Positions 1 to 12,692 of a DNA stretch of 12,692 bases are shown piece by piece. Positions within the stretch are counted from its first letter, which is position 1, and each line of letters opens with the position of its first letter. The notes below the pieces were generated by a model that saw only the letters and a program-made list of their open reading frames with translations, had not been told where the DNA came from and did not search any database. A program made the translations under genes and the position numbers. The stretch is taken from IMG/VR virus record IMGVR_UViG_2617270948_000001, positions 1-12,692 of that record; one strand, written 5' to 3'. Source of the DNA: a virus (Duplodnaviria > Heunggongvirae > Uroviricota > Caudoviricetes).

Positions 1-47
1 CATTCGTAATGCGAAGGTCGTAGGTTCGACTCCTATTATCGGCACCA
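1..47 (+). tRNA. thrW: 3' portion of a tRNA-Thr(CGU) gene (anticodon loop TTCGTAA, T-arm GGTTCGACTCC, acceptor 3' strand, terminal CCA at 45-47); window starts inside the gene; probable prophage attachment site
   Basis: Matches the canonical tRNA 3' half: T-loop GTTCGA, acceptor strand TATCGGC complementary to a GCCGATA 5' end, encoded CCA. A P22-type integrase is convergent 14 bp downstream. Identification as thrW is from memory of that tRNA and of P22 integrating there. Confidence 0.7.
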
Positions 48-61
48 TTAAAATCAATAAG

Positions 62-1225
62 TTACACATCATTAGTACCTTCCTTATTTTTTGACTGGGA
101 CAAATTTGGGACCGATGGGTTCAGGATCGAGTCTATTTGCCGTGCGTGTTCGGTAAGGTGATTAGGTGCAAGGTGAGCATATCGACGAACCATTTCGATA
201 GACTCCCAGCCTCCCATTTCCTGTAACACTGACAACGGGACTCCGGCTTGAACCAGCCAACTTGCCCAGGTGTGTCTCAAGTCGTGAAATCTGAAATCAT
301 CAATACCAGCCCGTCTCAGCGCCGCTTTCCAGGCTGTGTTTGCGTCATACCGCATCTTCCTTACTGTTGGCGCTTTCGTTCCGTCTGGTTTGGTACAGCT
401 TTCCTTGTACACAAATACCCAACGGTGATGATTCCCGATTTGTTTTTTCAATACGCGACATGCAGTATCATTCAGCGCAACGCCAATTGCGCGGTTTGAT
501 TTACTCTCTTCCGGGTTTATCCATGCCACCCGGCGCTGCATATCTATTTGTTGCCATTCAAGGTTGATGATGTTCGAGCGTCTTAAGCCTGTTGCCAGTG
601 CAAATTCAACAACAGACTTTAATGGCTCCGGACATTCATCAATCAGCCTTTGTGCTTCATGGGGCTCCAGCCAGCGGATCCGTTTATTCTTTGGTTGAGG
701 CACTTTAATAATTGGTGCCTTATCCAGCATTTTCCATTCACGCTCTGCGGCTCTTAGTAGGGCCTTTATAAATGAAAGATGCGTAGCCTTCGTTGCAACG
801 GACGCTGGTTTTGGCGTGTATTCTGGAACAGGTTTCCCTTTTTTTCTGCATGCTTCTGCCCTGAGTTTCCAGTTTTCCTCATGACGCCGGTTCGTCATTT
901 TCTGCATTGCTGAATAAATTTTTGATTCAGTAATGTCTCTTAGTTGCATTCCTGCGAAATGTTGAAGCCAGAATCCGATCCGGCTTTTGTCATCGTCCAG
1001 TGATTTTTTATGTGCTTTCTCTTCAAGCCACCTGACACAAGCTTCCTCGAACGTTATATCAGGTATTTCACCAAGTTTGCTGACCCGCCATGCTTCAGCC
1101 TTTAGCTTGTCATGGAGTTCTGTCGCCTGCCTTTTGTCCTTTGTTCCAAGAGACTGTTTAAATCTTTTACCGTTCGGCAATGTGAAACTGGCGTACCATA
1201 TTTCACCTCTGCGGAAGAGTGACAT
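62..1225 (-). CDS. int: Tyrosine recombinase / phage integrase, P22-Int type (387 aa)
   Basis: ATG at 1225 preceded by GAGGA; TAA at 62-64. Protein begins [22 protein letters not shown] as recalled for P22 Int. C-terminal catalytic signature HDLRHTWAS ... VRRYAHL (HxxR and Tyr nucleophile). Adjacent to tRNA 3' end. Confidence 0.93.
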
Positions 1226-1452
1226 TTTCTTTCCTCTGTTATGCCATCACCCGCGCTCACCTGGACAGTATGCAGCGGAGACTGAAGCGCCGCAATGCAG
1301 GCTTGTCGTGTTGTGAGGTAAGGAGATTTTAGTTTAGTGGGGTCTTTGCGTGTTGCCTGTAGGCGGCCTGTTCGTATCCAGTTGGTAGCGGTAGGTCTGG
1401 ATATCTTGAGAAACTGACAGGCCTCATCGAGTGTGAGGCTGTATGATTCCAT
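1102..1452 (-). CDS. xis: Excisionase, AlpA/Xis-type HTH (116 aa from ATG at 1452); 3' end overlaps int 5' end
   Basis: ATG at 1450-1452 preceded by AGAGG; the listed ORF extends 10 codons further only via a GTG. Protein [31 protein letters not shown] is the AlpA/excisionase HTH family. Position immediately upstream of int. Confidence 0.8.
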
Positions 1453-1702
1453 GGTTACCTCTGCTTTTTGAACGCATGTCACGTAACTTCTTAATGTGTT
1501 CTGCCGTTTCGATCTCTTCTGCTATCCGATCTGCATCAGCTTTATTCACAGGTTCAAAGTCATGATTAAAGCGGAACATGCTGGCGATACATGTTCTGCC
1601 TTTTCGGATGTAGTGAACTTTGTTGTGGGTAGAACGCAGGATTTTGCAGGGAGTGCCGTGGTGGTCGACGTACCAGGTGTTAGGCAAAATGATTCTGAAC
1701 AT
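1424..1702 (-). CDS. Hypothetical small early-region protein (92 aa)
   Basis: ATG at 1702 with GAGGTG Shine-Dalgarno 7 nt upstream; co-oriented with the early left operon; 3' end overlaps xis start by about 29 nt. No family recognised. Confidence 0.5.
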   Translation of the reverse strand: MFRIILPNTWYVDHHGTPCKILRSTHNKVHYIRKGRTCIASMFRFNHDFEPVNKADADRIAEEIETAEHIKKLRDMRSKSRGNHGIIQPHTR

Positions 1703-1749
1703 TTTTACACCTCAGTTGGACGATGTTGAAATTTGCTGCTTTGAGGCCA

Positions 1750-1968
1750 TCACAATCCCCATTGTTTGTTCTTAAGTTCGATCTCCTCCTGGCAACTTGC
1801 ACAAGTCCGACAACCCTGAACGGCCAGGCGTCTTCGTTCATCTATGGGATCGCCACACTCACAACAATGAGTGGCAGATATAACCTGGTGGTTCAGACGA
1901 CGCATTTTTATTGCTGTATTGCGCTGTAATTCTTCGATTTCTGATGCTGAATCAATGATGTCTGCCAT
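1750..1968 (-). CDS. TraR/DksA-family C4 zinc-finger protein (72 aa)
   Basis: Motif C-x2-C-x17-C-x2-C (CCECGDPIDERRRLAVQGCRTCASC) typical of DksA/TraR zinc fingers. ATG at 1968, co-oriented with early operon. Confidence 0.8.
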   Translation of the reverse strand: MADIIDSASEIEELQRNTAIKMRRLNHQVISATHCCECGDPIDERRRLAVQGCRTCASCQEEIELKNKQWGL

Positions 1969-2022
1969 CTTCCATTAATCCCTGAATTGTTGGTTAATAC
2001 GCTTGAGGGTGAATGCGAATAA

Positions 2023-2045
2023 TAAAAAAGGAGCCTGTAGCTCCC
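2023..2045 (-). terminator. Possible intrinsic terminator (minus strand): GGAGC-ctgta-GCTCC hairpin followed by a T7 run on the minus strand
   Basis: Plus strand reads aaaaaaaGGAGCctgtaGCTCC; on the minus strand this is a 5-6 bp GC-rich stem followed by TTTTTTT. Lies between two small early genes. Confidence 0.4.
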
Positions 2046-2066
2046 TGATGATTTTGCTTTTCATGT

Positions 2067-2282
2067 TCATCGCTCCTTAAAGACGCCGTTTAACATGCCG
2101 ATTGCCAGGCTTAAATGAGTCGGTGTGAATCCCATCAGCGTTACCGTTTCGCGGTGCTTCTTCAGTACGCTACGGCAAATGTCATCGACGTTTTTATCCG
2201 GAAACTGCTGTCTGGCTTTTTTGATTTCAGAATTAGCCTGACGGGCTATGCTGCGAAGGGCGTTTTCCTGCTGAAGTGTCAT
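2067..2282 (-). CDS. Hypothetical small protein (about 71 aa from ATG at 2282; alternative ATG at 2348; listed ORF start at 2381 is a TTG)
   Basis: Open frame ending TGA at 2067-2069; ATG at 2280-2282 with weak GGGA upstream. Start codon uncertain. No family recognised. Confidence 0.4.
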   Translation of the reverse strand: MTLQQENALRSIARQANSEIKKARQQFPDKNVDDICRSVLKKHRETVTLMGFTPTHLSLAIGMLNGVFKER

Positions 2283-2358
2283 TGAACAAGTCCCATGTCG
2301 GCAAGCATAAGCACACAGAATATGAAGCCCGCTGCCAGAAAAATGCATTCCGTGGTTG

Positions 2359-2916
2359 TCATGCAGCCTCCCGACGGGCAAGAATCCTTGAGCCGAACGC
2401 CATCAACTCTCCACGATCAACGGTCGTAAAGTGGCAGTGTGTACGGGGGTATGGGTGCCAGATAATGAGCATCGAGCCTTTATTATTTCCACTGACGGGT
2501 TTCTCAGTGAGTGGGTTAATAAATGCCAGTCGTCCTGCCGTGATGAATCTGACCTCACTGGCGGTTTGTATCGCTTCATGAAACCATCCGACAGATGTGT
2601 CAGCAGGCAATAACATTACACATCCCACACTACTGAATTTGTTTTCAGTGGCTGCCTTTTTCACAAAAGGGGAAATATTGCTGTATGGTGGATTCAACCA
2701 GACATAACCAGAGGCATATCCCATTGCTTCAGGCCATGAAGTGGTTAATGTGTTCTGCTCCTGTGAGATAAAAAGCCGACATAGTCGGTTTTTTTCGCTG
2801 GCGGCAGCATCAAGTTGAAAAACGAACTCTGCATTAAGCGCAGCAAAAATCTCTGGTGGTGTGCGCCAGCTGTCGCGATGTTCGGCAGGAGTATTGCTTC
2901 CGGTGAAATCAGTCAT
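2359..2916 (-). CDS. Phage Dam-family N6-adenine DNA methyltransferase (185 aa)
   Basis: Contains WRTPPEIF near N-terminus and the NPPY catalytic motif (WLNPPYSN), the layout of the phage N-6-adenine-methyltransferase (Dam) family. ATG at 2916 with GGGGG upstream. Confidence 0.85.
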   Translation of the reverse strand: MTDFTGSNTPAEHRDSWRTPPEIFAALNAEFVFQLDAAASEKNRLCRLFISQEQNTLTTSWPEAMGYASGYVWLNPPYSNISPFVKKAATENKFSSVGCVMLLPADTSVGWFHEAIQTASEVRFITAGRLAFINPLTEKPVSGNNKGSMLIIWHPYPRTHCHFTTVDRGELMAFGSRILARREAA

Positions 2917-3070
2917 ACAGCCCCCGTTTATTATTTATCGCCTCAGCCAGCCGCTGTGCTTTCAGTGGATTTCTGATAACAGAAAGGCCGGGAAATACCC
3001 AGCCTCGCTTTGTAACGGAGTAGACGAAAGTGATCGCGCCTACCCGGATATTATCGTGAGGATGCGTCAT
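2909..3070 (-). CDS. Unlisted small ORF (53 aa, [53 protein letters not shown]) between exo and the methyltransferase
   Basis: ATG overlaps the exo TGA stop (ATGA), and its TGA overlaps the methyltransferase start (ATGACTGA). Below the ORF-track length cutoff. Occupies the slot of the small ORF downstream of exo in lambda. Confidence 0.4.
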
Positions 3071-3747
3071 CGCCATTGCTCCCCAAATACAAAACCAATT
3101 TCAGCCAGTGCCTCGTCCATTTTTTCGATGAACTCCGGCACCATCTCGTCAAAACTCGCCATGTACTTTTCATTCCGCTCAATCACGACATAATGCAGGC
3201 CTTCACGCTTCATGCGCGGGTCATAGTTGGCAAAGTACCAGGCATCTTTTCGTGCCACCCACATGCTGTACTGCACCTGGGCCATGTAAGCCGATTTTAT
3301 GGCCTCGAAACCACCGAGCCGGAACTTCATGAAATCCCGGGAGGTAAACGGGCATTTCAGTTCAAGGCCGTTGCCATCACTGCATAAACCATCGGGAGAG
3401 CAGGCGGTGCGCATACTTTCGTCGCGATAGATGATCGGGGATTCAATAACATTCACGCCGGAAGTGAACTCAAACAGGGTTCTGGCGTCGTTCTCGTACT
3501 GTTTTCCCCAGGCCAGTGCTTTAGCGTTAACTTCCGGAGCCACACCGGTGCAAACCTCGGCAAGCAGGGTGTGGAAGTAGGACATTTTCATGTCAGGCCA
3601 CTTCTTTCCGGAGCGGGGTTTTGCTATCACGTTGTGAACTTCTGAAGCGGTGATGACGCCGAGCCGTAATTTGTGCCACGCATCATCCCCCTGTTCGACA
3701 GCTCTCACATCGATCCCGGTACGCTGCAGGATAATGTCCGGTGTCAT
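3067..3747 (-). CDS. exo: Lambda exonuclease (Red-alpha, 226 aa)
   Basis: Near-identical over full length to lambda Exo as recalled ([40 protein letters not shown] ... GFVFGEQWR). Start overlaps bet stop by 4 nt. Confidence 0.96.
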
Positions 3748-4529
3748 GCTGCCACCTTCTGCTCTGCGGCTTTCTGTTTCAGGAATCCAAGAGCTTTTAC
3801 TGCTTCGGCCTGTGTCAGTTCTGACGATGCACGAATGTCGCGGCGAAATATCTGGGAACAGAGCGGCAATAAGTCGTCATCCCATGTTTTATCCAGGGCG
3901 ATCAGCAGAGTGTTAATCTCCTGCATGGTTTCATCGTTAACCGGAGTGATGTCGCGTTCTGGCTGACGTTCTGCAGTGTATGCAGTATTTTCGACAATGC
4001 GCTCGGCTTCATCCTTGTCATAGATACCAGCAAATCCGAAGGCCAGACGGGCACACTGAATCATGGCTTTATGCCGTAACATCCGTTTGGGATGCGACTG
4101 CCACGGCCCCGTGATTTCTCTGCCTTCGCGAGTTTTGAATGGTTCGCGGCGGCATTCATCCATCCATTCGGTAACGCAGATCGGATGATTACGGTCCTTG
4201 CGGTAAATCCGGCATGTACAGGATTCATTGTCCTGCTCAAAGTCCATGCCATCAAACTGCTGGTTTTCATTGATGATGCGGGACCAGCCATCAACGCCCA
4301 CCACCGGAACGATGCCGTTCTGCTTATCAGGGAAGGCGTAAATTTCTTTCGTCCACGGATTAAGGCCGTACTGGTTGGCGACGATCAACAATGCGATGAA
4401 CTGCGCATCGCTGGCATCACCTTTAAATGCCGTCTGGCGAAGAGTGGTGATCAGTTCCTGTGGGTCGACAGAATCCATGCCGACACGTTCAGCCAGCTTC
4501 CCTGCCAGCGTTGCGAGTGCTGTACTCAT
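3744..4529 (-). CDS. bet: Lambda Beta single-strand annealing protein (Red-beta, 261 aa)
   Basis: Matches lambda Bet as recalled ([66 protein letters not shown] ...), same length. Confidence 0.96.
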
Positions 4530-4534
4530 CCGTT

Positions 4535-4831
4535 TTATACCTCTGAATCAATATCAACCTGGTGGTGAGCAATGGTTTCAACCATGTACCGGATGTGTTC
4601 TGCCATGCGCTCCTGAAACTCAACATCGTCATCAAACGCACGGGTAATGGCTTTTTTGCTGGCCCCGTGGCGTTGCAAATGATCGATGCATAGCGATTCA
4701 AACAGGTGCTGGGGCAGGCCTTTTTCCATGTCGTCTGCCAGTTCTGCCTCTTTCTCTTCACGGGCGATCTGCTGGTAGTGACGCGCCCAGCTCTGAGCCT
4801 CAAGACGATCCTGAATGTAATAAGCGTTCAT
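4535..4831 (-). CDS. gam: Lambda Gam, short (GamS-length, 98 aa) form only
   Basis: [60 protein letters not shown] ... VDIDSEV matches lambda Gam from its internal Met. The upstream in-frame extension is closed by TAA at 4907-4909 and has no ATG. Confidence 0.92.
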
Positions 4832-4906
4832 GGCTGAACTCCTGAAAATGGCTGTGAAAAAATCGCCCGCGGAATGCCTGGCTGATTCGGAAAACAGGAA
4901 AGGGGA

Positions 4907-5284
4907 TTAGTGATTCAGACCGTTGCCGCGTCCGTCGAGAAAAACTTCCACGAGCAAGTCACGGGTATAAGTGCGCTCAATGCCGCGATGCAGATAAAGT
5001 CGTCCGCGTAAATTAGCTGATGCAGTCCAGGTACCATCTTTGCGTTTGACCAGCATTCCTGGCATGACCGCACCTCGATTAACGGTCTGCGTTCCGTAAT
5101 GTTGATGAACCATAAAAACTCCTGCCCGTAAGCTGGGCTGCTGAACATATAGAGACTTCTGCGCGTATTCAGGCGGTGGATGGCCGCCGGTTGTCATAAC
5201 TAAGCCGCCTCGTTGAAGCGACTGAGGTATGAAGTGTTGAGTTGATTTCAGCTGGTCACACCGACGTTCACGCGTCCGCTTCAC
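4907..5284 (-). CDS. Hypothetical protein, first gene downstream of putative PL (N position); 125 aa if GTG at 5284, or 68 aa if ATG at 5113; arginine-rich N-terminus KRTRERR
   Basis: Open frame 4907-5317 (the listed start is TTG). GTG at 5282-5284 has GGAG 8 nt upstream; ATG at 5111-5113 has AGGAG 5 nt upstream. N-terminal KRTRERRCDQLK resembles the arginine-rich motif of N antiterminators (lambda TRRRERR). C-terminus does not match lambda Kil (which ends ...WILILKLRSSKSIH in the frame overlapping gam). Confidence 0.3.
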   Translation of the reverse strand: MKRTRERRCDQLKSTQHFIPQSLQRGGLVMTTGGHPPPEYAQKSLYVQQPSLRAGVFMVHQHYGTQTVNRGAVMPGMLVKRKDGTWTASANLRGRLYLHRGIERTYTRDLLVEVFLDGRGNGLNH

Positions 5285-5390
5285 CCCTCGCACTCCCCGG
5301 AGCCTGCTGAAATTCAAGCTGCGGATCTAAGCGGTCATCGCAACGGTGAATCAGGTGATTGCCGTATCGTTGTGTTGTTGCGATGAATTC

Positions 5391-5434
5391 ATTTAAAACT
5401 ATAGTTGTTTTATCGTCAACAACAAAAGTTGTTT
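5391..5434 (-). promoter_or_regulatory. Putative PL promoter and OL operator cluster (GTTGTT/AACAAC repeats overlapping a TTGACG -35)
   Basis: Minus strand: TTGACG (complement of 5414-5419), 17-bp spacer, TTAAAT (complement of 5391-5396). Overlapping GTTGTT(5404-5409)-N8-AACAAC(5418-5423) and AACAAC-aaaa-GTTGTT(5428-5433), the same half-site as the OR palindrome. Confidence 0.35.
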
Positions 5435-5561
5435 TGTTGGTTATTTTAGAAATAACTGGTTGTATTTAGGATGGATTTATTTTGTGACTTGCATCGCATA
5501 GCGATAACTGAAGCGAGGTTGTGGTGGTTTTTTGAACGGTGTGTGTGATGAGGGGAGGGGC

Positions 5562-5597
5562 AAAAGAAAACCCGGCACGGTGGCCGGGTTGTTTTTA
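5562..5597. terminator. Strong bidirectional intrinsic terminator (8-bp stem AACCCGGC/GCCGGGTT, loop acggtg, flanked by A-run and T-run)
   Basis: aaaagaaaaCCCGGCacggtgGCCGGGttgttttta; T-tract on either strand. Lies immediately 3' of the 316-aa minus-strand gene (stop at 5595-5597), ending the cI-cassette transcript before the PL region. Confidence 0.75.
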
Positions 5598-6545
5598 TAG
5601 CTCATTGTAAACAGCAATAGGCTCAATGAAATACTCATCAGAGTCAGGGGCGCAAAATGTTGACTCCAGATCAAAAAGGCTGTCATTCATATTCCAGACT
5701 GCACTGCGAATGCCGTTTAGTTCACGAGCCTCTGATTCCTGATTACCTTCAGACGTTGATGTACGCGTTATTATCCCTACGACTGTGAATGCAGAGGTCG
5801 TTCGACGAGAATATAACTTTACAAACATTTCTGGACTGATTTTAAGAAAATCTCTGATTAAGAATGAGGTGAATTTAATATCTTGCATTTTTTGTGATAT
5901 TTCTATTTCGTCACCATATGCGTAATCTAAAACAGAAGACAAATGCTCAAAGAATTTTTTCTGATTTGGAGATGTTAAATTATCAAGCTCACTTTTAATT
6001 TCTGCTTGTCTTGCCTTGATAATATTAAATTCATTGGATTTGGGTTTTATCGATTTCAGCATCGATTCTAGACTTTCTAATTCGTCATTTCGATGAACGA
6101 AATTAATAGCATAGTTAGTTTTACAGAAATTCTTAGCGGTATTTTTTAATTTATTATAGTCATTAAATTGAATTGGGCAGGTGATTTTAACAAAGCAATT
6201 AGCCTTAATTTTGTTCGAGTCGATCGGGGAAGTTATGTTAGACAGAATTCCTCTTTTGCTAAGTTCGTTTTCAAATTTCAGATAATGATAATCATGAGGG
6301 TTTAACACTGTTGATATTTTTTTTGTGTCACTCGTTTTACTTGAACTACTTTTTGTCTTTATTTCGACCGCATCTATATTTGAAAGAGTAGACTCTTTAT
6401 GCTCCATCGCGGATTGAATTACGCCCTCAAATAATTGAGAGCTTAAAGAGTAGACCTTCTCATAATCAATATAAATGATATTTTTTAACTGCATACCAAT
6501 TCCATTAGTGATATTTAAGTTGTTCTTTCTTTCTTTCAAAGTCAT
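5595..6545 (-). CDS. Hypothetical soluble protein (316 aa; possibly 299 aa from internal ATG at 6494), AT-rich cargo, no recognised family
   Basis: Long open frame in strongly AT-rich DNA unlike the flanking phage genes. Last gene of a three-ORF cassette co-oriented with cI. No Walker or other motif recognised by eye. Confidence 0.6.
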   Translation of the reverse strand: MTLKERKNNLNITNGIGMQLKNIIYIDYEKVYSLSSQLFEGVIQSAMEHKESTLSNIDAVEIKTKSSSSKTSDTKKISTVLNPHDYHYLKFENELSKRGILSNITSPIDSNKIKANCFVKITCPIQFNDYNKLKNTAKNFCKTNYAINFVHRNDELESLESMLKSIKPKSNEFNIIKARQAEIKSELDNLTSPNQKKFFEHLSSVLDYAYGDEIEISQKMQDIKFTSFLIRDFLKISPEMFVKLYSRRTTSAFTVVGIITRTSTSEGNQESEARELNGIRSAVWNMNDSLFDLESTFCAPDSDEYFIEPIAVYNEL

Positions 6546-6681
6546 CGCTATTTGACTTTCTGACCCTTTCTATGTGCATTAAAGTTTCCTGTGCATTTTT
6601 GAGGTTTTTTCTTGAAAACCATGCCAATACAGCAGGTATCACAACAGCTATTATGGATAAAATAGTAATTAAGTACTCCAT
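6505..6681 (-). CDS. Unlisted small membrane peptide (58 aa, MEYLITILSIIAVVIPAVLAWFSRKNLKNAQETLMHIERVRKSNSDDFERKKEQLKYH), single N-terminal TM helix
   Basis: ATG at 6679-6681 lies 3 nt after the TAA of the upstream 138-aa gene, whose last codons (CAG GAG TAA) supply an AGGAG Shine-Dalgarno. 3' end overlaps the 316-aa ORF start by 41 nt in another frame. Below the ORF-track cutoff. Confidence 0.45.
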   Translation of the reverse strand: MEYLITILSIIAVVIPAVLAWFSRKNLKNAQETLMHIERVRKSNSDDFERKKEQLKYH

Positions 6682-6684
6682 AAT

Positions 6685-7101
6685 TTACTCCTGCGCCACT
6701 ACTTTGTTATTGATAATAGCACACCTGACTGAATTTTGTCCAATGTATAAGGATATACCACAAGTAATAGCGACTAATATGCGAGTCGTATTCATGTTAA
6801 GGATGTTATCAGCCAGCATAACAATAATGTAAATTATAGAAAAAAGTACAATGAAAACAATCGATATGGTAGTGTTTATAATAATATTGTTTTCAGTTTG
6901 CTTGCTGGGTTGGCCCATTCCGTAATAAATACTGGATATTTGTATGGCAAAGCCAAAACATATCAACTCAGTTATATTGATCAGCTCTATGTTTTTATTA
7001 GTGATGAAATAAGCAATAAATCTAATAAAGATAGGGATTGCTCCAATGATTACTGTTCCGCACCACCACTTGAAATAATCACTATGAATATTATGTTGCA
7101 T
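6685..7101 (-). CDS. Hypothetical integral membrane protein (138 aa, about four predicted TM helices), first gene after cI
   Basis: Hydrophobic segments WWCGTVIIGAIPIFIRFIAYFI, ELICFGFAIQISSIYYG, ISIVFIVLFSIIYIIVMLA, ILVAITCGISLYIG. ATG at 7101, 49 bp downstream of the cI stop. AT-rich. Size and topology resemble RexB but no sequence similarity is claimed. Confidence 0.6.
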   Translation of the reverse strand: MQHNIHSDYFKWWCGTVIIGAIPIFIRFIAYFITNKNIELINITELICFGFAIQISSIYYGMGQPSKQTENNIIINTTISIVFIVLFSIIYIIVMLADNILNMNTTRILVAITCGISLYIGQNSVRCAIINNKVVAQE

Positions 7102-7149
7102 TATATAAACTCAATATTTAATTAATTTAAAGTTTCATAAGTTCCATGT

Positions 7150-7839
7150 TTACCCATGCTTCCTGTACGTCTGCGGCATGCTCCCGATGACTTTCCCGAA
7201 AATGAATACCCGGTTCATCTCGTCTTTCTCGATCGGGTCCCACGGTGAGTAACTCTTGTTATCAGAGATAACGAGCAGCTTATCCTTCATCATTTGCAGG
7301 CGCTTTACATGGGCTGTGTCGTCGTACAGAAACGCATAGATACCATCACCGTCGAAAGATTTAACAGTGATATCAACGAACAAAAGGTCACCTGGTTCGA
7401 TCGTTCCTGACATGCTGTCACCGCGTACGTTAATGATGCGGATATTTTCTGCCTTCCTACCATCGAACATGTGACGAGCATCGTCAAACGAGTACTCAAC
7501 CGAGCGTAGAACTTCTACAAACTCACGGTTGATGACTCCCGGCCCGGCACTCACTTCTATATCAAGAACGTCAATCTTAAAGTATTTGGAATGGCTGACA
7601 GTTGATTGTATTGGTTGCACTGTACTGTCTGACATATTTCCAACGCCAGAAGATAACCATTCTGCGCGCACACCCAAAGCGTTCGCGATCTCCACGATTT
7701 TAGTTGTTTGATTAGCTTTCCCTGTTTCGATTTTCTGAATAGCAGCCTGGCTAACCCCGACCAAATCCCCAAGCGCCTTTTGTGTAAGGCCTCGCGCTAA
7801 TCTGGCTTCTTTAAGTCTTTCTGAGAGTGTTGTTTTCAT
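7150..7839 (-). CDS. CI-like prophage repressor (229 aa from ATG at 7839): N-terminal XRE-type HTH plus C-terminal LexA-like S24 autopeptidase domain
   Basis: HTH segment LTQKALGDLVGVSQAAIQKIETGK; Ala-Gly cleavage site in VSAGPG; catalytic Ser in RGDSM and Lys in HVKRL. The listed ORF start at 7905 runs through the operator region. ATG at 7839 has almost no leader, consistent with a PRM-type leaderless transcript. Confidence 0.85.
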   Translation of the reverse strand: MKTTLSERLKEARLARGLTQKALGDLVGVSQAAIQKIETGKANQTTKIVEIANALGVRAEWLSSGVGNMSDSTVQPIQSTVSHSKYFKIDVLDIEVSAGPGVINREFVEVLRSVEYSFDDARHMFDGRKAENIRIINVRGDSMSGTIEPGDLLFVDITVKSFDGDGIYAFLYDDTAHVKRLQMMKDKLLVISDNKSYSPWDPIEKDEMNRVFIFGKVIGSMPQTYRKHG

Positions 7840-7931
7840 AGTCCAAATGTACAACCAAGGTTTTATTCCATCAAACGAAAATGGTTGTTGACTAAAAACA
7901 ACCATAGTTTTAATCTTGATTCAAATTAACC
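7840..7931. promoter_or_regulatory. OR-like immunity switch: divergent PRM (minus) and PR (plus) promoters with a 25-bp perfect palindromic operator
   Basis: Palindrome ATGGTTGTT-gactaaa-AACAACCAT at 7881-7905. PR: TTGACT (7888-7893), 17 bp, TAATCT (7911-7916). PRM on minus strand: TTGATG (complement 7869-7874), 17 bp, TACATT (complement 7846-7851), about 7 nt before the cI ATG. Extra ACAACC/GGTTGT half-sites at 7851-7856 and 7937-7942. Confidence 0.55.
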
Positions 7932-7943
7932 ATGGAGGTTGTT

Positions 7944-8174
7944 ATGAACCCAGCTATCAAAACAGCGATCAATATCGTTGGTTCACAAAAGAAACTGGGC
8001 GCTGCTTGCGAAGTTTCACAGCAGGCCGTCTATAAGTGGCTTCACAACAAAGCAAAGGTATCCCCTGAACATGTCGGCAGCATTGTTACGGCTACTGGTG
8101 GAGTAGTGAAGGCATACCAGATTCGCCCGGATCTTCCGAAGTTGTTTCCACACACCGAAAAGAACGCAGCTTAA
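7944..8174 (+). CDS. Cro-like small HTH regulator, DicC/YdaS-like (76 aa from ATG at 7944; the listed ORF begins at an upstream ATG at 7932)
   Basis: GGAGG at 7934-7938 sits 5 nt before the ATG at 7944. Sequence SQKKLGAACEVSQQAVYKWL is a DicC/YdaS-type HTH. Divergent from the repressor across the operator region. Confidence 0.7.
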   Translation: MNPAIKTAINIVGSQKKLGAACEVSQQAVYKWLHNKAKVSPEHVGSIVTATGGVVKAYQIRPDLPKLFPHTEKNAA

Positions 8175-8186
8175 ATTTCCATTTCA

Positions 8187-8199
8187 CGCTCTTTAACAA
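8187..8199 (+). promoter_or_regulatory. boxA-like element CGCTCTTTAACAA at the nutR position just downstream of cro
   Basis: GCTCTTTAACAA matches the E. coli rrn/lambdoid boxA consensus as recalled. Located 13 bp after the cro-like stop, where nutR lies in lambda. No convincing boxB hairpin seen downstream. Confidence 0.35.
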
Positions 8200-8243
8200 T
8201 AAGCAATCAACTTAACAGTCAATTCAAACTAAAGGAGTCAATT

Positions 8244-8783
8244 ATGCAACCACTTACATACCAACAGACTAGCGGATTTAGCCCGACTGCGGTGATAAAT
8301 CGTTCTCAAACAAAACAGGTGCCAGGCCACGAAAAAATCCGTGATGCCGTCCGCGCCTGGTCGGCTGTAGATAATCAGGATGTCGTTGCCACACTCATTG
8401 TGAATGAGTATCGGGAGCAGGGCGGCGGCACCATCGATTTCCCTGATGATGTCAGCCGTGCACGCCAGAAGCTGTTCCGCTTCCTCGATAACAAATTCGA
8501 TTCTGAAAAATACCGAAATAACGTGCGTGAACTGACCCCGGCAATTCTGGCTGTACTACCGCTGGAATATCGCGGCCACCTGGTTGAGCAGGATAGCTTC
8601 ATGGCTAGGCTGGCTGAAATGGAAAAGGAACTCAGTGAGGCAAAACAGGCTGTCATTCTCAACGCACCACGCCACCAGAAACTGAAGGAGATGAGTGAAG
8701 GCATTGTGTCGATGTTTCGAGTGGACCCGGATCTGGCAGGTCCATTGATGGCGATGGTCACCACCATGCTGGGGGCAATATGA
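8244..8783 (+). CDS. YdaT-like protein at the cII position (179 aa)
   Basis: AGGAG 7 nt upstream of ATG at 8244. Segments NEYREQGGG and LTPAILAVLPLEYRGHL resemble recalled Rac YdaT (EEYLRQGGG, LIPAILAILPRELRHRL). Follows a YdaS/DicC-like cro as in Rac-type immunity regions. No similarity to lambda CII. Confidence 0.5.
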   Translation: MQPLTYQQTSGFSPTAVINRSQTKQVPGHEKIRDAVRAWSAVDNQDVVATLIVNEYREQGGGTIDFPDDVSRARQKLFRFLDNKFDSEKYRNNVRELTPAILAVLPLEYRGHLVEQDSFMARLAEMEKELSEAKQAVILNAPRHQKLKEMSEGIVSMFRVDPDLAGPLMAMVTTMLGAI

Positions 8784-8869
8784 CATGTTCAGAAATGGCG
8801 AAAGCCGGTCTGCTGGAACAGAACCGACTTTCAGGTGCAAATCGTAACGCACTCATTGCGGGAGGAATT

Positions 8870-9799
8870 ATGGCAAACACTGCTGAGATATTCAATTTTC
8901 CAGTGCCGGATGCGGCACAAAAGGAGCCGCGCGTGGCAGATCTCGATGATGGTTATACGCGCATTGCAAATGAGTTGCTGGAAGCTGTGATGCTGGCCGG
9001 ATTAACACAGCACCAGCTTCTGGTCTTCCTGGCTGTCATGCGCAAAACATATGGCTTTAATAAAAAACTGGATTGGGTGAGCAACGAGCAACTTTCCGAG
9101 TTGACCGGGATATTGCCGCACAAGTGTTCTGCTGCAAAAAGTGTTCTGGTAAAGCGTGGGATTTTTATTCAGAGCGGGCGGAATATAGGCATTAATAATG
9201 TGGTCAGTGAATGGTCAACATTACCCGAATCAGGTAAGAAAAATAAAGTTTACCTGAAAGAGGTAAATTTACCTGAATCAGGTAAGAAAAGTTTACCCAA
9301 ATCAGGTAAAGGCACTTACCCGAATCAGGTAAACACAAAAGACAAACTAACAAAAGACAATATAAAACCTTATTCGTCCGAGAATTCTGGCGAATCCTCT
9401 GACCAGCCAGAAAACGATCTTCCTGTGGTGAAACCGGATGCTGCAATTCAGAGCGGCAGCAAGTGGGGGACAGCAGAAGACCTGACCGCCGCAGAGTGGA
9501 TGTTTGACATGGTGAAGACCATCGCGCCATCAGCCAGAAAACCGAATTTTGCAGGGTGGGCTAACGATATCCGCCTGATGCGTGAACGTGACGGACGTAA
9601 CCACCGCGATATGTGTGTACTGTTCCGCTGGGCATGCCAGGACAACTTCTGGTCCGGTAACGTGCTAAGTCCGGCCAAACTCCGCGACAAGTGGACCCAA
9701 CTCGAAATCAACCGTAACAAGCAACAGGCAGGCGTGACAGCTAGCAAACCAAAACTCGACCTGACAAACACAGACTGGATTTACGGGGTGGATCTATGA
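8870..9799 (+). CDS. O: Replication initiator O (lambda O family, 309 aa from ATG at 8870; listed ORF start at 8780 is probably an upstream in-frame extension)
   Basis: GGAGG 4 nt before ATG at 8870. MANTAEIFNF ... ADLDDGYTRIANELLEA ... RKTYGFNK parallels lambda O N-terminus (MTNTAKILNF ... ADLDDGYARLSN ... RKTYGWNK). Iterons lie inside the gene. Stop overlaps P start (ATGA). Confidence 0.9.
   Translation: MANTAEIFNFPVPDAAQKEPRVADLDDGYTRIANELLEAVMLAGLTQHQLLVFLAVMRKTYGFNKKLDWVSNEQLSELTGILPHKCSAAKSVLVKRGIFIQSGRNIGINNVVSEWSTLPESGKKNKVYLKEVNLPESGKKSLPKSGKGTYPNQVNTKDKLTKDNIKPYSSENSGESSDQPENDLPVVKPDAAIQSGSKWGTAEDLTAAEWMFDMVKTIAPSARKPNFAGWANDIRLMRERDGRNHRDMCVLFRWACQDNFWSGNVLSPAKLRDKWTQLEINRNKQQAGVTASKPKLDLTNTDWIYGVDL
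9221..9333. repeat. Replication origin iterons: five copies (one degenerate) of an 18-bp dyad TTACC(C/T)(G/A)AATCAGGTAA(G/A), followed by an AT-rich stretch at 9334-9370
   Basis: Copies at 9221-9238, 9249-9265 (degenerate), 9269-9286, 9293-9310, 9316-9333, spaced about 20-28 bp, then cacaaaagacaaactaacaaaagacaatataaaacc. Inside the O gene, as in ori-lambda. Encodes repeated PESGKK in the O linker. Confidence 0.75.
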
Positions 9800-10497
9800 A
9801 AAACATCGCCGCACAGATGATTAACTTTGACCGTGAGCAGATGCGTCGGATCGCCAACAACATGCCGGAACAGTACGACGAAAAGCCGCAGGTACAGCAG
9901 GTAGCGCAGATCATCAATGGTGTGTTCAGCCAGTTACTGGCAACTTTCCCGGCGAGCCTGGCTAACCGGGACCAGAACGAACTGAACGAAATCCGCCGCC
10001 AGTGGGTTCTGGCTTTCCGGGAAAACGGGATCACCACGATGGAACAGGTTAACGCAGGAATGCGCGTAGCCCGTCGGCAGAATCGACCATTCCTGCCATC
10101 ACCCGGGCAGTTTGTTGCCTGGTGCCGGGAAGAAGCATCCGTTACCGCCGGGCTGCCAAACGCCAGCGAGCTGGTTGATATGGTTTACGAGTATTGCCGG
10201 AAACGTGGCCTGTATCCGGATGCAGAGTCTTATCCGTGGAAATCAAACGCGCACTACTGGCTGGTTACCAACCTGTATCAGAACATGCGGGCCAATGCGC
10301 TGACTGATGCGGAATTACGGCGCAAGGCTGCCGATGAACTGGCCTGTATGACAGCGCGAATTAACCGTGGTGAGGCGATACCTGAACCAGTAAAACAACT
10401 TCCTGTCATGGGCGGGAGACCGCTTAATCGTGTTCAGGCTCTGGCGAAGATCGCAGAAATCAAAGCGAAGTTTGGGCTGAAAGGAGCAAGTGTATGA
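9796..10497 (+). CDS. P: Replication protein P (lambda P, DnaB helicase loader, 233 aa)
   Basis: Essentially identical to lambda P as recalled (MKNIAAQMINFDREQMRRIANNMPEQYDEKPQVQQVAQIINGVFSQLLATFPASLANRDQNE ... KFGLKGASV). Confidence 0.96.
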   Translation: MKNIAAQMINFDREQMRRIANNMPEQYDEKPQVQQVAQIINGVFSQLLATFPASLANRDQNELNEIRRQWVLAFRENGITTMEQVNAGMRVARRQNRPFLPSPGQFVAWCREEASVTAGLPNASELVDMVYEYCRKRGLYPDAESYPWKSNAHYWLVTNLYQNMRANALTDAELRRKAADELACMTARINRGEAIPEPVKQLPVMGGRPLNRVQALAKIAEIKAKFGLKGASV

Positions 10498-10667
10498 CGG
10501 GCAAAGAGGCAATTATTCATTACCTGGGGACTCATAAGAACTTCTGTGCGCAGGACGTTGCCGCGGTAACAGGCGCAACCGTAACCAGCATAAATCAGGC
10601 TGCGGCTAAAATGGCGCGGGCAGGAATCCTGGTCGTTGATGGTAAGGTCTGGCGAACGTTTGTTTAA
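10494..10667 (+). pseudogene. ren: Truncated ren (57 codons versus about 96 in lambda); marks the point where lambda-like sequence ends
   Basis: ATG overlaps P stop (ATGA). MTGKEAIIHYLGTHKNFCAQDVAAVTGATVTSINQAAAKMARAGILVVDGKVWRT matches the lambda Ren N-terminus, then diverges (FV-stop) into AT-rich unrelated sequence. Below ORF-track cutoff. Confidence 0.6.
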
Positions 10668-10813
10668 CGGTTAGCTACTCAGGATGATAGGGCGGGGCAA
10701 GTGAGTATGAAGCGGATTTTCAGGAATGCCATCAGAGTTTGGAAATAAAGTGGGTTTTCTAGTGGCAAGAGACTTGATAATATTTAGTTCTTTGAATCCA
10801 AGGAGATAGGGTT

Positions 10814-11308
10814 ATGAGAAAATTTATTTTAGCCTTTGTTATAAGTGCCTCGTTTACAGCAAATGCTGGTGTAGAGAAGTTAGGGCCGTGGATAACAAAG
10901 TCTGAGATAAATAAAATGACTGATCAGACTGACTTTGTGGCTCTTAATTTATCACCAGATTCATATAACAAAGCAGGTACTGATCGTGCAACTTCACTGG
11001 TGTTGCGTTGTAGTGATAACAAAACAGATGTCTATTTATCATTCAATGATTATATGGGTTCGGACAACCCAAGAATTACAGTACGGTTAGATGGCGGAAA
11101 GCCGGTCAAGAGTGTTTGGGGAGGTGGGGAAGGCGGTGATTCTGCATTTGCTCCACAACCAATACAATTTATAAAGACCTTGGCTAAGCATAAAAAAGCT
11201 ATTTTTGGGTTTGAACCTTATGGATCAACTATGCAAGTAGTTGAGTTTGACTTGTCTGAGATTGATAAGGTTGTGGAAAAAATTTCACAGTCTTGCAATT
11301 GGAAATAA
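10814..11308 (+). CDS. Hypothetical secreted/periplasmic protein (164 aa) with Sec signal peptide; AT-rich cargo
   Basis: AGGAG 8 nt before ATG. N-terminus MRKFILAFVISASFTANA-GVE has a positive n-region, hydrophobic core and an A-x-A cleavage site. Two Cys (C66, C162) could form a disulfide. No family recognised. Confidence 0.6.
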   Translation: MRKFILAFVISASFTANAGVEKLGPWITKSEINKMTDQTDFVALNLSPDSYNKAGTDRATSLVLRCSDNKTDVYLSFNDYMGSDNPRITVRLDGGKPVKSVWGGGEGGDSAFAPQPIQFIKTLAKHKKAIFGFEPYGSTMQVVEFDLSEIDKVVEKISQSCNWK

Positions 11309-11325
11309 CAAAAAAATATCATATG

Positions 11326-11352
11326 AACCCAGTTGGCTCTGGGTTTTTTATT
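11326..11352 (+). terminator. Intrinsic terminator after the secreted-protein gene (stem AACCCAG/CTGGGTT, loop ttggct, then TTTTTTATTT)
   Basis: Perfect 7-bp stem immediately followed by a T-run, 18 bp after the stop codon. Confidence 0.65.
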
Positions 11353-11704
11353 TCTGTTGTCTATAATGTATTCATAATTTTTACTGGGATACAGTGCACA
11401 TAAAATCCCAATTGCGGTAGGACGATAACTGGATCAGGTGGAGGCACTTACGCAAGAATTGATTGTATTAATTTGCATAGAGCAACGCGAAGTTATTTAT
11501 AAATTAACTGATATAGAGTACTAGATGTAATCCGAACCGGTTATGATTCGTCACCAATTTTGCAAGAGGCTGGGTAGGTAAGCTATTGGATACCGTAGGT
11601 AGCAAAAATATAGAAGGAGGGGAAGAATTGCTAAACTCGAGCATTCACTTAAATCTGAGTTATTTATTGTTAAGATATAATACACTTTGAATAATAGAGG
11701 CTAT

Positions 11705-12109
11705 ATGACAACGAAAATAAGCAAAGATGATAAACATCTGCTTGATCCTTATTTAAAATGGCTTGCAAACAAGAAGCTAATGGTTGCCTTCTGGTTGGTG
11801 CTAATGATATGTGGTTGCATATATGCATATATAGAAAATGATTGGTCACTTCTTCCCCGATTCGGATGTTTAGGCATAATGATTGGCACATTGCTTACTC
11901 TTTCTCCGCTTTTTGCAGAAGGTATCTACCTGTCAAGGCGAGAAGCATTTAGTTTTGGTTCGGTACAACAAGATGGGAGCGTCACCTCAACCTCTGAAAA
12001 AGGTCGTGCAGTATCAAGGAATATTCTATGGGGTGTTATCATTATAATCATATCATCGATAATAAATGCATTTGGTGACTTAATAATGGTCACGATTATG
12101 AATGGTTAA
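11705..12109 (+). CDS. Hypothetical small membrane protein (134 aa from ATG at 11705; the listed ORF start at 11687 is a TTG), about three TM helices
   Basis: AGAGG 4 nt before ATG. Hydrophobic segments LMVAFWLVLMICGCIYAYI, LGIMIGTLLTLSPLF, ILWGVIIIIISSIINAFGDLIMVTI. AT-rich. No family recognised. Confidence 0.5.
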   Translation: MTTKISKDDKHLLDPYLKWLANKKLMVAFWLVLMICGCIYAYIENDWSLLPRFGCLGIMIGTLLTLSPLFAEGIYLSRREAFSFGSVQQDGSVTSTSEKGRAVSRNILWGVIIIIISSIINAFGDLIMVTIMNG

Positions 12110-12365
12110 AATAATTAATATTTATGATATTAGTATTATATAACTTAGTATGCTGTTTAATTAAGTCACCGCAGACTTGACACTTGGCGGTAACTTCTGC
12201 GCTAAACGGTGACGTTTATACGCACATACAATCTAAATCCTCTTCTCCCTCCACAGATGCAGAAATATACCTGCGATTTTTTGCATTCGGTGTGTAGTGG
12301 CATAGTGAATTTGGCCACCTGAATAGAGGTGATATCATCACCTCATAGTCAAAACAGGTGACATT

Positions 12366-12677
<312 letters not shown>

Positions 12678-12692
12678 TTGAGAAACTCAGGG

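Follow-up and report, generated by a model that had tools for sequence, protein, structure and literature searches.

Gene A–B–C, a conserved three-gene module with a DUF6414 protein in the repressor slot of an Escherichia coli lambdoid prophage and a probable anti-phage system

Kiwa is a membrane-localised defence that acts at injection. SNIPE is a further membrane-localised system with the same point of action (PMC13190303). In temperate phages, the interval between cI and N is a mosaic hotspot that shares the strongly expressed repressor promoter and holds rexAB or bstA (PMC8585504), and RexAB-type systems are also known elsewhere, such as PP_5643/5644 of Pseudomonas putida (PMC12894663). 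Cargo of this kind is often protective: in P4 satellites, six of eight randomly chosen cargo loci of unknown function conferred protection (PMC13586616). Finally, DUF6414 has been reported as the family of one component of the Dodola system (bioRxiv 10.1101/2024.10.26.620412; PMC11514479). Here, we describe a cassette of three genes, A, B and C, the last encoding a DUF6414 protein, in IMG/VR record IMGVR_UViG_2617270948_000001, positions 1 to 12,692, a stretch of an E. coli lambdoid prophage (hereafter, the window). A–B–C is a real, conserved, widely distributed and unnamed three-gene module, and from its context, we estimate the probability of an anti-phage role, of whatever type, at about 0.7. 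The features of the locus, in the order of transcription, are as follows.

7150–7839, minus strand: cI-type repressor, 229 aa from the RefSeq start (WP_000858975.1, S24 family peptidase)
7102–7149, minus strand: 48-nt spacer from the stop of cI to the start of gene A, with no terminator-like site in a terminator scan
6685–7101, minus strand: gene A, 138 aa, four-helix integral membrane protein
6505–6681, minus strand: gene B, 58 aa, single-pass membrane peptide with an N-terminal transmembrane (TM) segment at about residues 4–22 by hydropathy
6526–6537, minus strand: (GAAA)3 tract at the 3' end of gene B, where the loss of one unit gives an in-frame B–C fusion
5595–6494, minus strand: gene C, most likely a soluble DUF6414 protein of 299 aa; an alternative ATG at 6545 would give 316 aa
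5569–5590, minus strand: intrinsic terminator-like bidirectional hairpin, 8-bp stem with six GC pairs and a T-run (inverted repeat I1)
5397–5440, minus strand: putative OL/PL, with two operator-like inverted repeats (I2, I3) and, as −35 element, TTGAC(G)

The minus strand therefore reads cI, the 48-nt spacer, genes A, B and C and the terminator hairpin, which lies directly 3' of the gene C stop in the terminator scan. A 99.8%-identical stretch is present in E. coli strain NADC1036, where the prophage adjoins a tRNA-Thr gene downstream of proA. The repressor, which carries the Pfam domains HTH_3 (E = 5e-13) and Peptidase_S24 (E = 1e-18), is the putative upstream gene of a lysogenic operon. The exact 9-mer GTTGTTGAC occurs at two sites in the window, 5415–5423 on the minus strand and 7884–7892 on the plus strand between cI and cro, a pair that is consistent with a PL/OL and PR/OR layout. 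Compared with the layout of lambda, the cassette lies between cI and PL, where lambda has rexAB and prophage BTP1 has bstA; as with RexAB, it follows cI across a spacer without a terminator and ends before OL/PL, and it is presumably co-transcribed with the repressor. A preceding sequence-only reading had placed the cassette just downstream of cI on the same strand, in the rexAB slot, with a terminator at its end before a putative PL/OL, and each of these points was recovered. The longest cI open reading frame (ORF), 251 aa from an ATG at 7905, extends 22 codons beyond the RefSeq start at 7839 and would overlap an operator-like hairpin at 7881–7905; the shorter, 229-aa form is the more plausible one.

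In all 37 first-round homologues of gene C (297–311 aa), the alignment begins at the internal ATG 6494, which is also where RefSeq places the start of what it names a ‘DUF6414 family protein’; C is therefore most likely 299 aa long (5595–6494). With this start, the genes are separated by 3 nt (A–B) and 10 nt (B–C). Thus, the three ORFs are co-oriented on the minus strand as had been claimed, but they most likely do not overlap, and the large protein, while soluble (no hydrophobic segment by hydropathy), is most likely shorter than the 316 aa first assigned to it; the 138-aa multi-TM protein and the 58-aa single-TM peptide stand. The C protein matches the Pfam profile PF19952 (DUF6414) with an E-value of 3.2e-18 and 66.9 bits (cutoff 25), across positions 1–283 of 283, and precomputed annotations give PF19952 to all C homologues listed. 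Nothing informative for C was found in PADLOC, NCBIfam or PHROGs, and for A and B, no family was found in Pfam, NCBIfam, PHROGs or PADLOC. The earlier statement that no known family could be recognised is therefore right for A and B and wrong for C, and the cassette cannot be called fully undescribed, because C belongs to the family of a Dodola component. In the literature, PF19952 and the RefSeq accessions go unmentioned, and DUF6414 appears only in a one-line mention in a review.

The structural model of C is of reasonable confidence (pLDDT 80, pTM 0.70) and predicts a beta-barrel to which both termini contribute strands, an insertion of three helices at about residues 113–192 and a disordered loop at residues 24–63. 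Judged from this model, the fold appears to have no solved relative and only partial matches to OB-like barrels; a PDB sequence search with the DUF6414 profile gave only noise. The most conserved residues are Y8, D10, K13, S16, Q20, G24, D68, E75, D112, R230, E287, P292, A294 and Y296. Most DUF6414 relatives have a conserved ‘QKGP..SGR’ motif in the 24–63 loop (window positions of about 6306–6425), in whose place the enterobacterial clade has a Ser/Thr/Lys-rich stretch. This loop might be a site of modification, cleavage or interaction.

Gene A encodes a protein with three to four hydrophobic segments by hydropathy, which AlphaFold models, with low confidence (pLDDT 67.5, pTM 0.47), as four long helices. 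It is almost wholly membrane-embedded and has conserved polar residues; throughout the family, W12, P23, R27 and S117 do not vary. Its identity ranges from 48 to 99% over 22 clusters, and its dN/dS of about 0.06–0.10, where dS could be estimated, indicates strong purifying selection. An HMM built from the ORFs upstream of distant C relatives matches the window's gene A with an E-value of 4e-15 even at Z = 1e6, so gene A is a true homologue of those ORFs.

Gene B has a good AGGAG Shine-Dalgarno sequence, and B peptides have a basic cytoplasmic tail with a median net charge of +5. The gene changes fast, with 31–40% identity among enterobacterial copies that retain the ORF and the TM segment, and the window's gene B has no significant match (E of about 270) to an HMM built from distant B peptides. 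For this reason, the equivalence of B across loci rests on position and architecture: gene B is too short and evolves too fast for significant similarity, while its position, N-terminal TM segment and basic tail are constant. Upstream of B, within the 3' end of gene A, is a promoter-like site (6713–6742, minus strand; TGGACA, 18 nt, TATTAT, extended −10 TG; 10 of 12 matches), reminiscent of the lambda pLIT promoter, which sits within rexA. A promoter scan found 6 sites, against 9.0 expected from shuffles, with no enrichment in the AT-rich DNA.

Three independent natural fusions, P0125, P0172 and P0300, join a B-like N-terminal TM segment and basic tail to DUF6414. The E. coli fusion P0300 (360 aa, on two contigs) is one GAAA unit short, and B continues into C by way of the stretch of the C frame that lies upstream of its start; this loss could be slipped-strand variation or plain mutation. 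Fusions of this type are expected if the cytoplasmic tail of B normally tethers C to the membrane, and they suggest such an arrangement.

In a first scan of relatives, limited to one genome per species, we identified 25 full-length C relatives at 25–33% identity in Aliiglaciecola, Oceanospirillum, Methylobacter, Psychrobacter, bacteria of the Halomonas group, Photobacterium, Nitrosomonas, Bacteriovorax, a Thermodesulfobacteriota metagenome-assembled genome (MAG) and Bacteroidales. All 25 were immediately preceded by two co-oriented ORFs, the first of about 135 aa with several TM segments and the second of 42–64 aa with one. When genomic, viral and looked-up loci having a full-length C were pooled, the A–B–C order was kept in 87 out of 87, and the HMM detected A in every one of them; an automatic filter found B in 84, and inspection found it in the other three, two of which have a longer, 139-aa form. 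The commonest gene junction among the relatives is a 4-nt overlap. The cassette occurs in Gammaproteobacteria, Bacteroidota, Thermodesulfobacteriota and Bacteriovorax. Among 45 non-redundant loci, the distance matrices of A and C are correlated (Mantel r = 0.83, a value reached by 0 of 2000 permutations), which indicates, at the level of sequence, that A and C co-evolve. An exhaustive profile search returned 919 clusters at 50% identity with E ≤1e-3, of which 228 had E ≤1e-30, and both A and B were present in the most divergent members that were looked up (Pseudomonas and Pontibacter). A tblastn search of a plasmid collection gave no cassette match. In draft assemblies, exact copies of B (155 contigs) and A (110 contigs) are always unnamed or ‘hypothetical’, and the commonest C variant (140 contigs) is labelled ‘hypothetical’ or ‘DUF6414 family protein’.

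The cassette has the properties of horizontally acquired cargo, as the sequence-only reading had supposed from its base composition. Its GC content is about 0.31, against about 0.5 in the flanks; it stays at 0.29–0.34 across positions 5800–7200, versus about 0.46–0.55 in the Red, cI and O/P genes, and it occurs in 1 of 5426 complete E. coli genomes, while its flanks are shared by 2052. Elsewhere, too, cassette GC was below that of the flanks in 25 out of 25 genomic loci (for example, 0.34 against 0.60). In other E. coli, what follows the identical cI (WP_000858975.1) is either a pair of small hypothetical proteins or a DUF3800 protein, and since the same repressor precedes other cargo in other strains, the slot behind it is a swap-in hotspot. 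Conservation of the cassette at a repressor-proximal position extends to other phage types. In Klebsiella, where the proteins are 53–72% identical, it directly follows a 127-aa HTH repressor in Rac-like prophages and a 240-aa S24 repressor in others, and in a Vibrio P2/186-like phage, a 30%-identical copy is situated between the CI repressor and the integrase. Among IMG/VR contigs with a C relative, A was upstream in 52 out of 52, and at least 19 of 51 co-oriented upstream neighbours were repressors: nine with HTH_3 (five of them with S24), eight of the P2/186 CI type (CI_repr and CI_C) and at least two more identified by PHROGs. Most of the remaining IMG/VR loci belong to two highly redundant groups of gut-metagenome phages, one of which has a restriction-type HNH endonuclease upstream of the cassette. 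The cassette is thus found as variable cargo behind S24-type, short HTH-type and P2/186 CI-type repressors. These three genes are inherited together, as mobile low-GC cargo, and have been placed repeatedly, on the same strand, directly after unrelated repressors.

A different cargo position is seen in Pseudomonas (loci L093/L094, positions 3468–4963), where a divergent cassette (C 23% identical) lies at the extreme end of a prophage, by the integrase and next to uvrC/pgsA, and not in the repressor slot. Some neighbours of the cassette are defence genes. In three Bacteroidales-type loci (L019, L020 and L023), the cassette begins 4 nt after the stop of an ORF of about 1040 aa encoding the HsdR subunit of a type I restriction-modification (R-M) system, as if it had been appended to the R-M operon; in a fourth (L024), the same two R-M ORFs are upstream, with a gap of 235 nt to the cassette. 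In Klebsiella, an OLD-like DUF2813/AAA_15 protein is encoded near the cassette.

How far does this module resemble the described systems? With RexAB, it shares the slot and orientation (after cI, before OL/PL, ending at a terminator), the combination of a four-TM protein with a soluble protein of about 280–300 aa and, presumably, the status of lysogen-expressed cargo; it differs in that its genes run in the opposite order and include an obligatory third one. When compared by hhalign, a 30-sequence A profile gave a probability of 0.10% against lambda RexB, with only the number of TM helices in common, and the RexA comparison gave 0.2%. The Rex resemblance, which the sequence-only reading had remarked upon, is therefore one of architecture and not of homology. 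Like Dodola, the module is a small, sporadic, horizontally mobile operon with a DUF6414 protein of about 300 aa. Dodola, however, pairs DUF6414 with a ClpB-like AAA+ ATPase, whereas the cassette (87/87 loci) pairs it with a membrane protein of four helices and a peptide that crosses the membrane once. ClpB/AAA_2 was absent from the 25 commonest neighbour families listed, gene C in the window being followed by the terminator and PL, and profile searches returned only the clade linked to A and B, even among the most divergent members listed. Kiwa likewise forms a membrane-associated defence complex from a small protein with several TM segments and a soluble one of about 300 aa that carries a DUF, though it has two genes where the cassette has three. 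No PADLOC model of KwaA or KwaB was matched, Pfam searches gave no DUF4868, and the hit of NCBIfam KwaA to the 58-aa peptide was noise (E = 0.062, 13 bits, cutoff 100). BstA of prophage BTP1 is, similarly, a defence gene downstream of repressors in diverse Gram-negative prophages that also occurs outside prophages (PMC8585504), but it is one soluble protein, accompanied by aba, a self-immunity element encoded in the DNA, and has no similarity to the cassette in sequence or architecture.

A–B–C is probably a lysogen-expressed, membrane-anchored DUF6414 defence module that PADLOC misses. Temperate phages would capture A–B–C into their lysogenic (repressor) transcription unit, where it would be transcribed together with cI from PRM to the terminator at 5569–5590 and would protect the lysogen against other phages. 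The four-helix A and the single-pass B may form an inner-membrane complex, with the basic cytoplasmic tail of B holding the soluble C at the membrane. C, with its OB-like barrel and inserted helical bundle, could then sense infection, the cue being phage nucleic acid or else a phage protein, upon which A and B, as the effector, would compromise the membrane and cause abortive infection or exclusion. The same logic has been proposed for RexA and RexB. In this scheme, DUF6414 would be a sensing module common to the cassette and Dodola, with the ClpB-like ATPase partner swapped for a membrane effector. We regard this division of labour, C as sensor and A and B as membrane effector, as tentative, its chances being somewhat short of even.

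A broader proposal would make DUF6414 a general, hitherto unrecognised phage-sensing module of OB-like fold that works with exchangeable effectors: in Dodola a ClpB-like unfoldase, here a dedicated membrane effector of two proteins. A–B–C would then be a defence system without a name but widespread, with hundreds of clusters at 50% identity, which at least three temperate lineages had independently placed in the repressor operon, and a non-homologous functional replacement of RexAB. We consider this proposal speculative and, as a whole, rather unlikely.

Several observations weigh against the preferred interpretation as a sensor–effector defence module. The conserved residues of C show no recognisable catalytic motif, the partial OB-like barrel match to single-stranded DNA (ssDNA)-binding proteins covers only about 76 residues, and Foldseek gave no match for C below an E-value of 0.09 in either library. 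The B–C fusions could be assembly errors or inactivating mutations. PADLOC returned nothing informative: searches with the window's proteins at E-values up to 1 gave, for C, only a noise-level AbiEi match, and none of the PADLOC families matched by 112 diverse C relatives (E ≤0.01) is a Dodola model. The link to Dodola consists of Pfam membership and one review statement; DUF6414 was reportedly connected with Dodola (DolA/DolB) by Millman et al. in 2022. Many non-phage loci lie among housekeeping genes (alaS, for example), so the enrichment in defence islands is only modest to moderate, and the adjacency to R-M genes comes from essentially one Bacteroidales lineage.

The main rival keeps the defence function and reverses the polarity, in the manner of Kiwa or SNIPE: A and B would mark or sense the site where the phage genome enters, and the tethered C would be the effector, using its OB-like barrel to bind phage DNA, on entry or during replication, and block it without killing the cell. 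Both systems are precedents for such action, and the matches of C to ssDNA-binding proteins and its apparent tethering to the membrane in the B–C fusions would suit this role; moreover, a membrane-embedded A with polar residues could be a sensor as easily as a pore. Yet C has no nuclease or other catalytic signature, neither A nor B has an extracytoplasmic domain able to contact a phage tail, and no KwaA or KwaB model matches, and we judge this polarity unlikely.

The remaining two alternatives are lesser rivals. Under the first, the module would have no part in defence and would be a lysogenic-conversion or addiction module (membrane toxin with soluble antitoxin), a modifier of stress or physiology or a modulator of the lysis–lysogeny decision. 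Small hydrophobic proteins are common toxins, many chromosomal copies lack a defence neighbour, and the silence of the defence databases agrees with such a role. Against this are the repeated capture at an exclusion hotspot behind at least three repressor types, the R-M and nuclease genes that adjoin the cassette elsewhere and the membership of C in DUF6414, while the absence of matches in the plasmid collection argues against plasmid addiction; a non-defence role thus seems quite unlikely.

Under the second, A and B alone would carry out classical superinfection exclusion (Sie), stopping DNA from crossing the inner membrane as P22 SieA, T4 Imm and HK97 gp15 do, and C would be accessory or regulatory. 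Sie systems are typically small prophage-encoded inner-membrane proteins expressed in lysogens, and both the size and location of A and B and the place of the cassette in the repressor operon fit this pattern. However, Sie systems usually comprise just a membrane protein or two and lack a conserved soluble partner of 300 aa, whereas C is the largest and best conserved of the three proteins and is never absent (87/87); the module is also common outside prophages, by housekeeping genes and R-M systems. Exclusion by A and B alone is therefore improbable.

That A and B are chance ORFs in AT-rich DNA, only the DUF6414 gene being real, is effectively refuted by the conservation data (the identity, dN/dS and distant homologues of A, the presence of A and B in 87/87 loci across phyla and the strong Shine-Dalgarno sequence of B), even though the RefSeq record of NADC1036 leaves the 138-aa gene A ORF unannotated and the distant B peptides gave no significant match. 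A holin or lysis cassette was also considered and rejected, because the module lies in the lysogenic and not the late operon and is common outside phages.

Further features of the window lie outside the repressor slot.

1–44: tRNA fragment, the sole Rfam match in the window
10494–10667: ORF in the ren position, 57 aa; NADC1036 annotates a 97-aa ‘phage exclusion protein Ren’
10814–11308: 164-aa protein with a signal-peptide-like N-terminus and a weak Pfam VasI match (E = 1e-6)
11687–12109: 140-aa TM protein, no family
12366–12677: IS3-type transposase orfA (HTH_Tnp_1, E = 3e-14), near the right end of the window and adjoining the second cargo block

This second AT-rich cargo block (10700–12200, GC 0.36–0.40) follows P and ren. 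The window seems to diverge from NADC1036 from about position 10660 onward, and at the equivalent place, that strain encodes an AAA ATPase and a RloB-family protein; since the genes there differ, the block looks like a second variable slot. On the other side of the cassette, in the interval between the putative PL and kil (5114–5410; kil at 4907–5113), no N-like antiterminator is annotated in the near-identical RefSeq record, and Rfam gave no RNA family within 5114–5410.

Many candidate systems of this kind exist; what is striking in this one is the conservation of the cassette together with its convergent capture behind repressors. If it is defensive, A–B–C would be a compact, widely distributed, membrane-anchored system that is undetected by PADLOC, and the repressor slot of lambdoid, Rac-like and P2/186-like phages would have been filled convergently by non-homologous modules of a membrane protein and a soluble partner, which is relevant to the long-standing question of why architectures of the Rex type are found in this slot. 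The 1.5-kb unit is small enough for direct cloning, and the natural B–C fusions suggest a design for work on localisation and interaction. The E. coli lambdoid prophage also offers a second, genetically tractable context for the orphan family DUF6414. If DUF6414 is indeed a general sensor, solving the function of this cassette would also explain Dodola.

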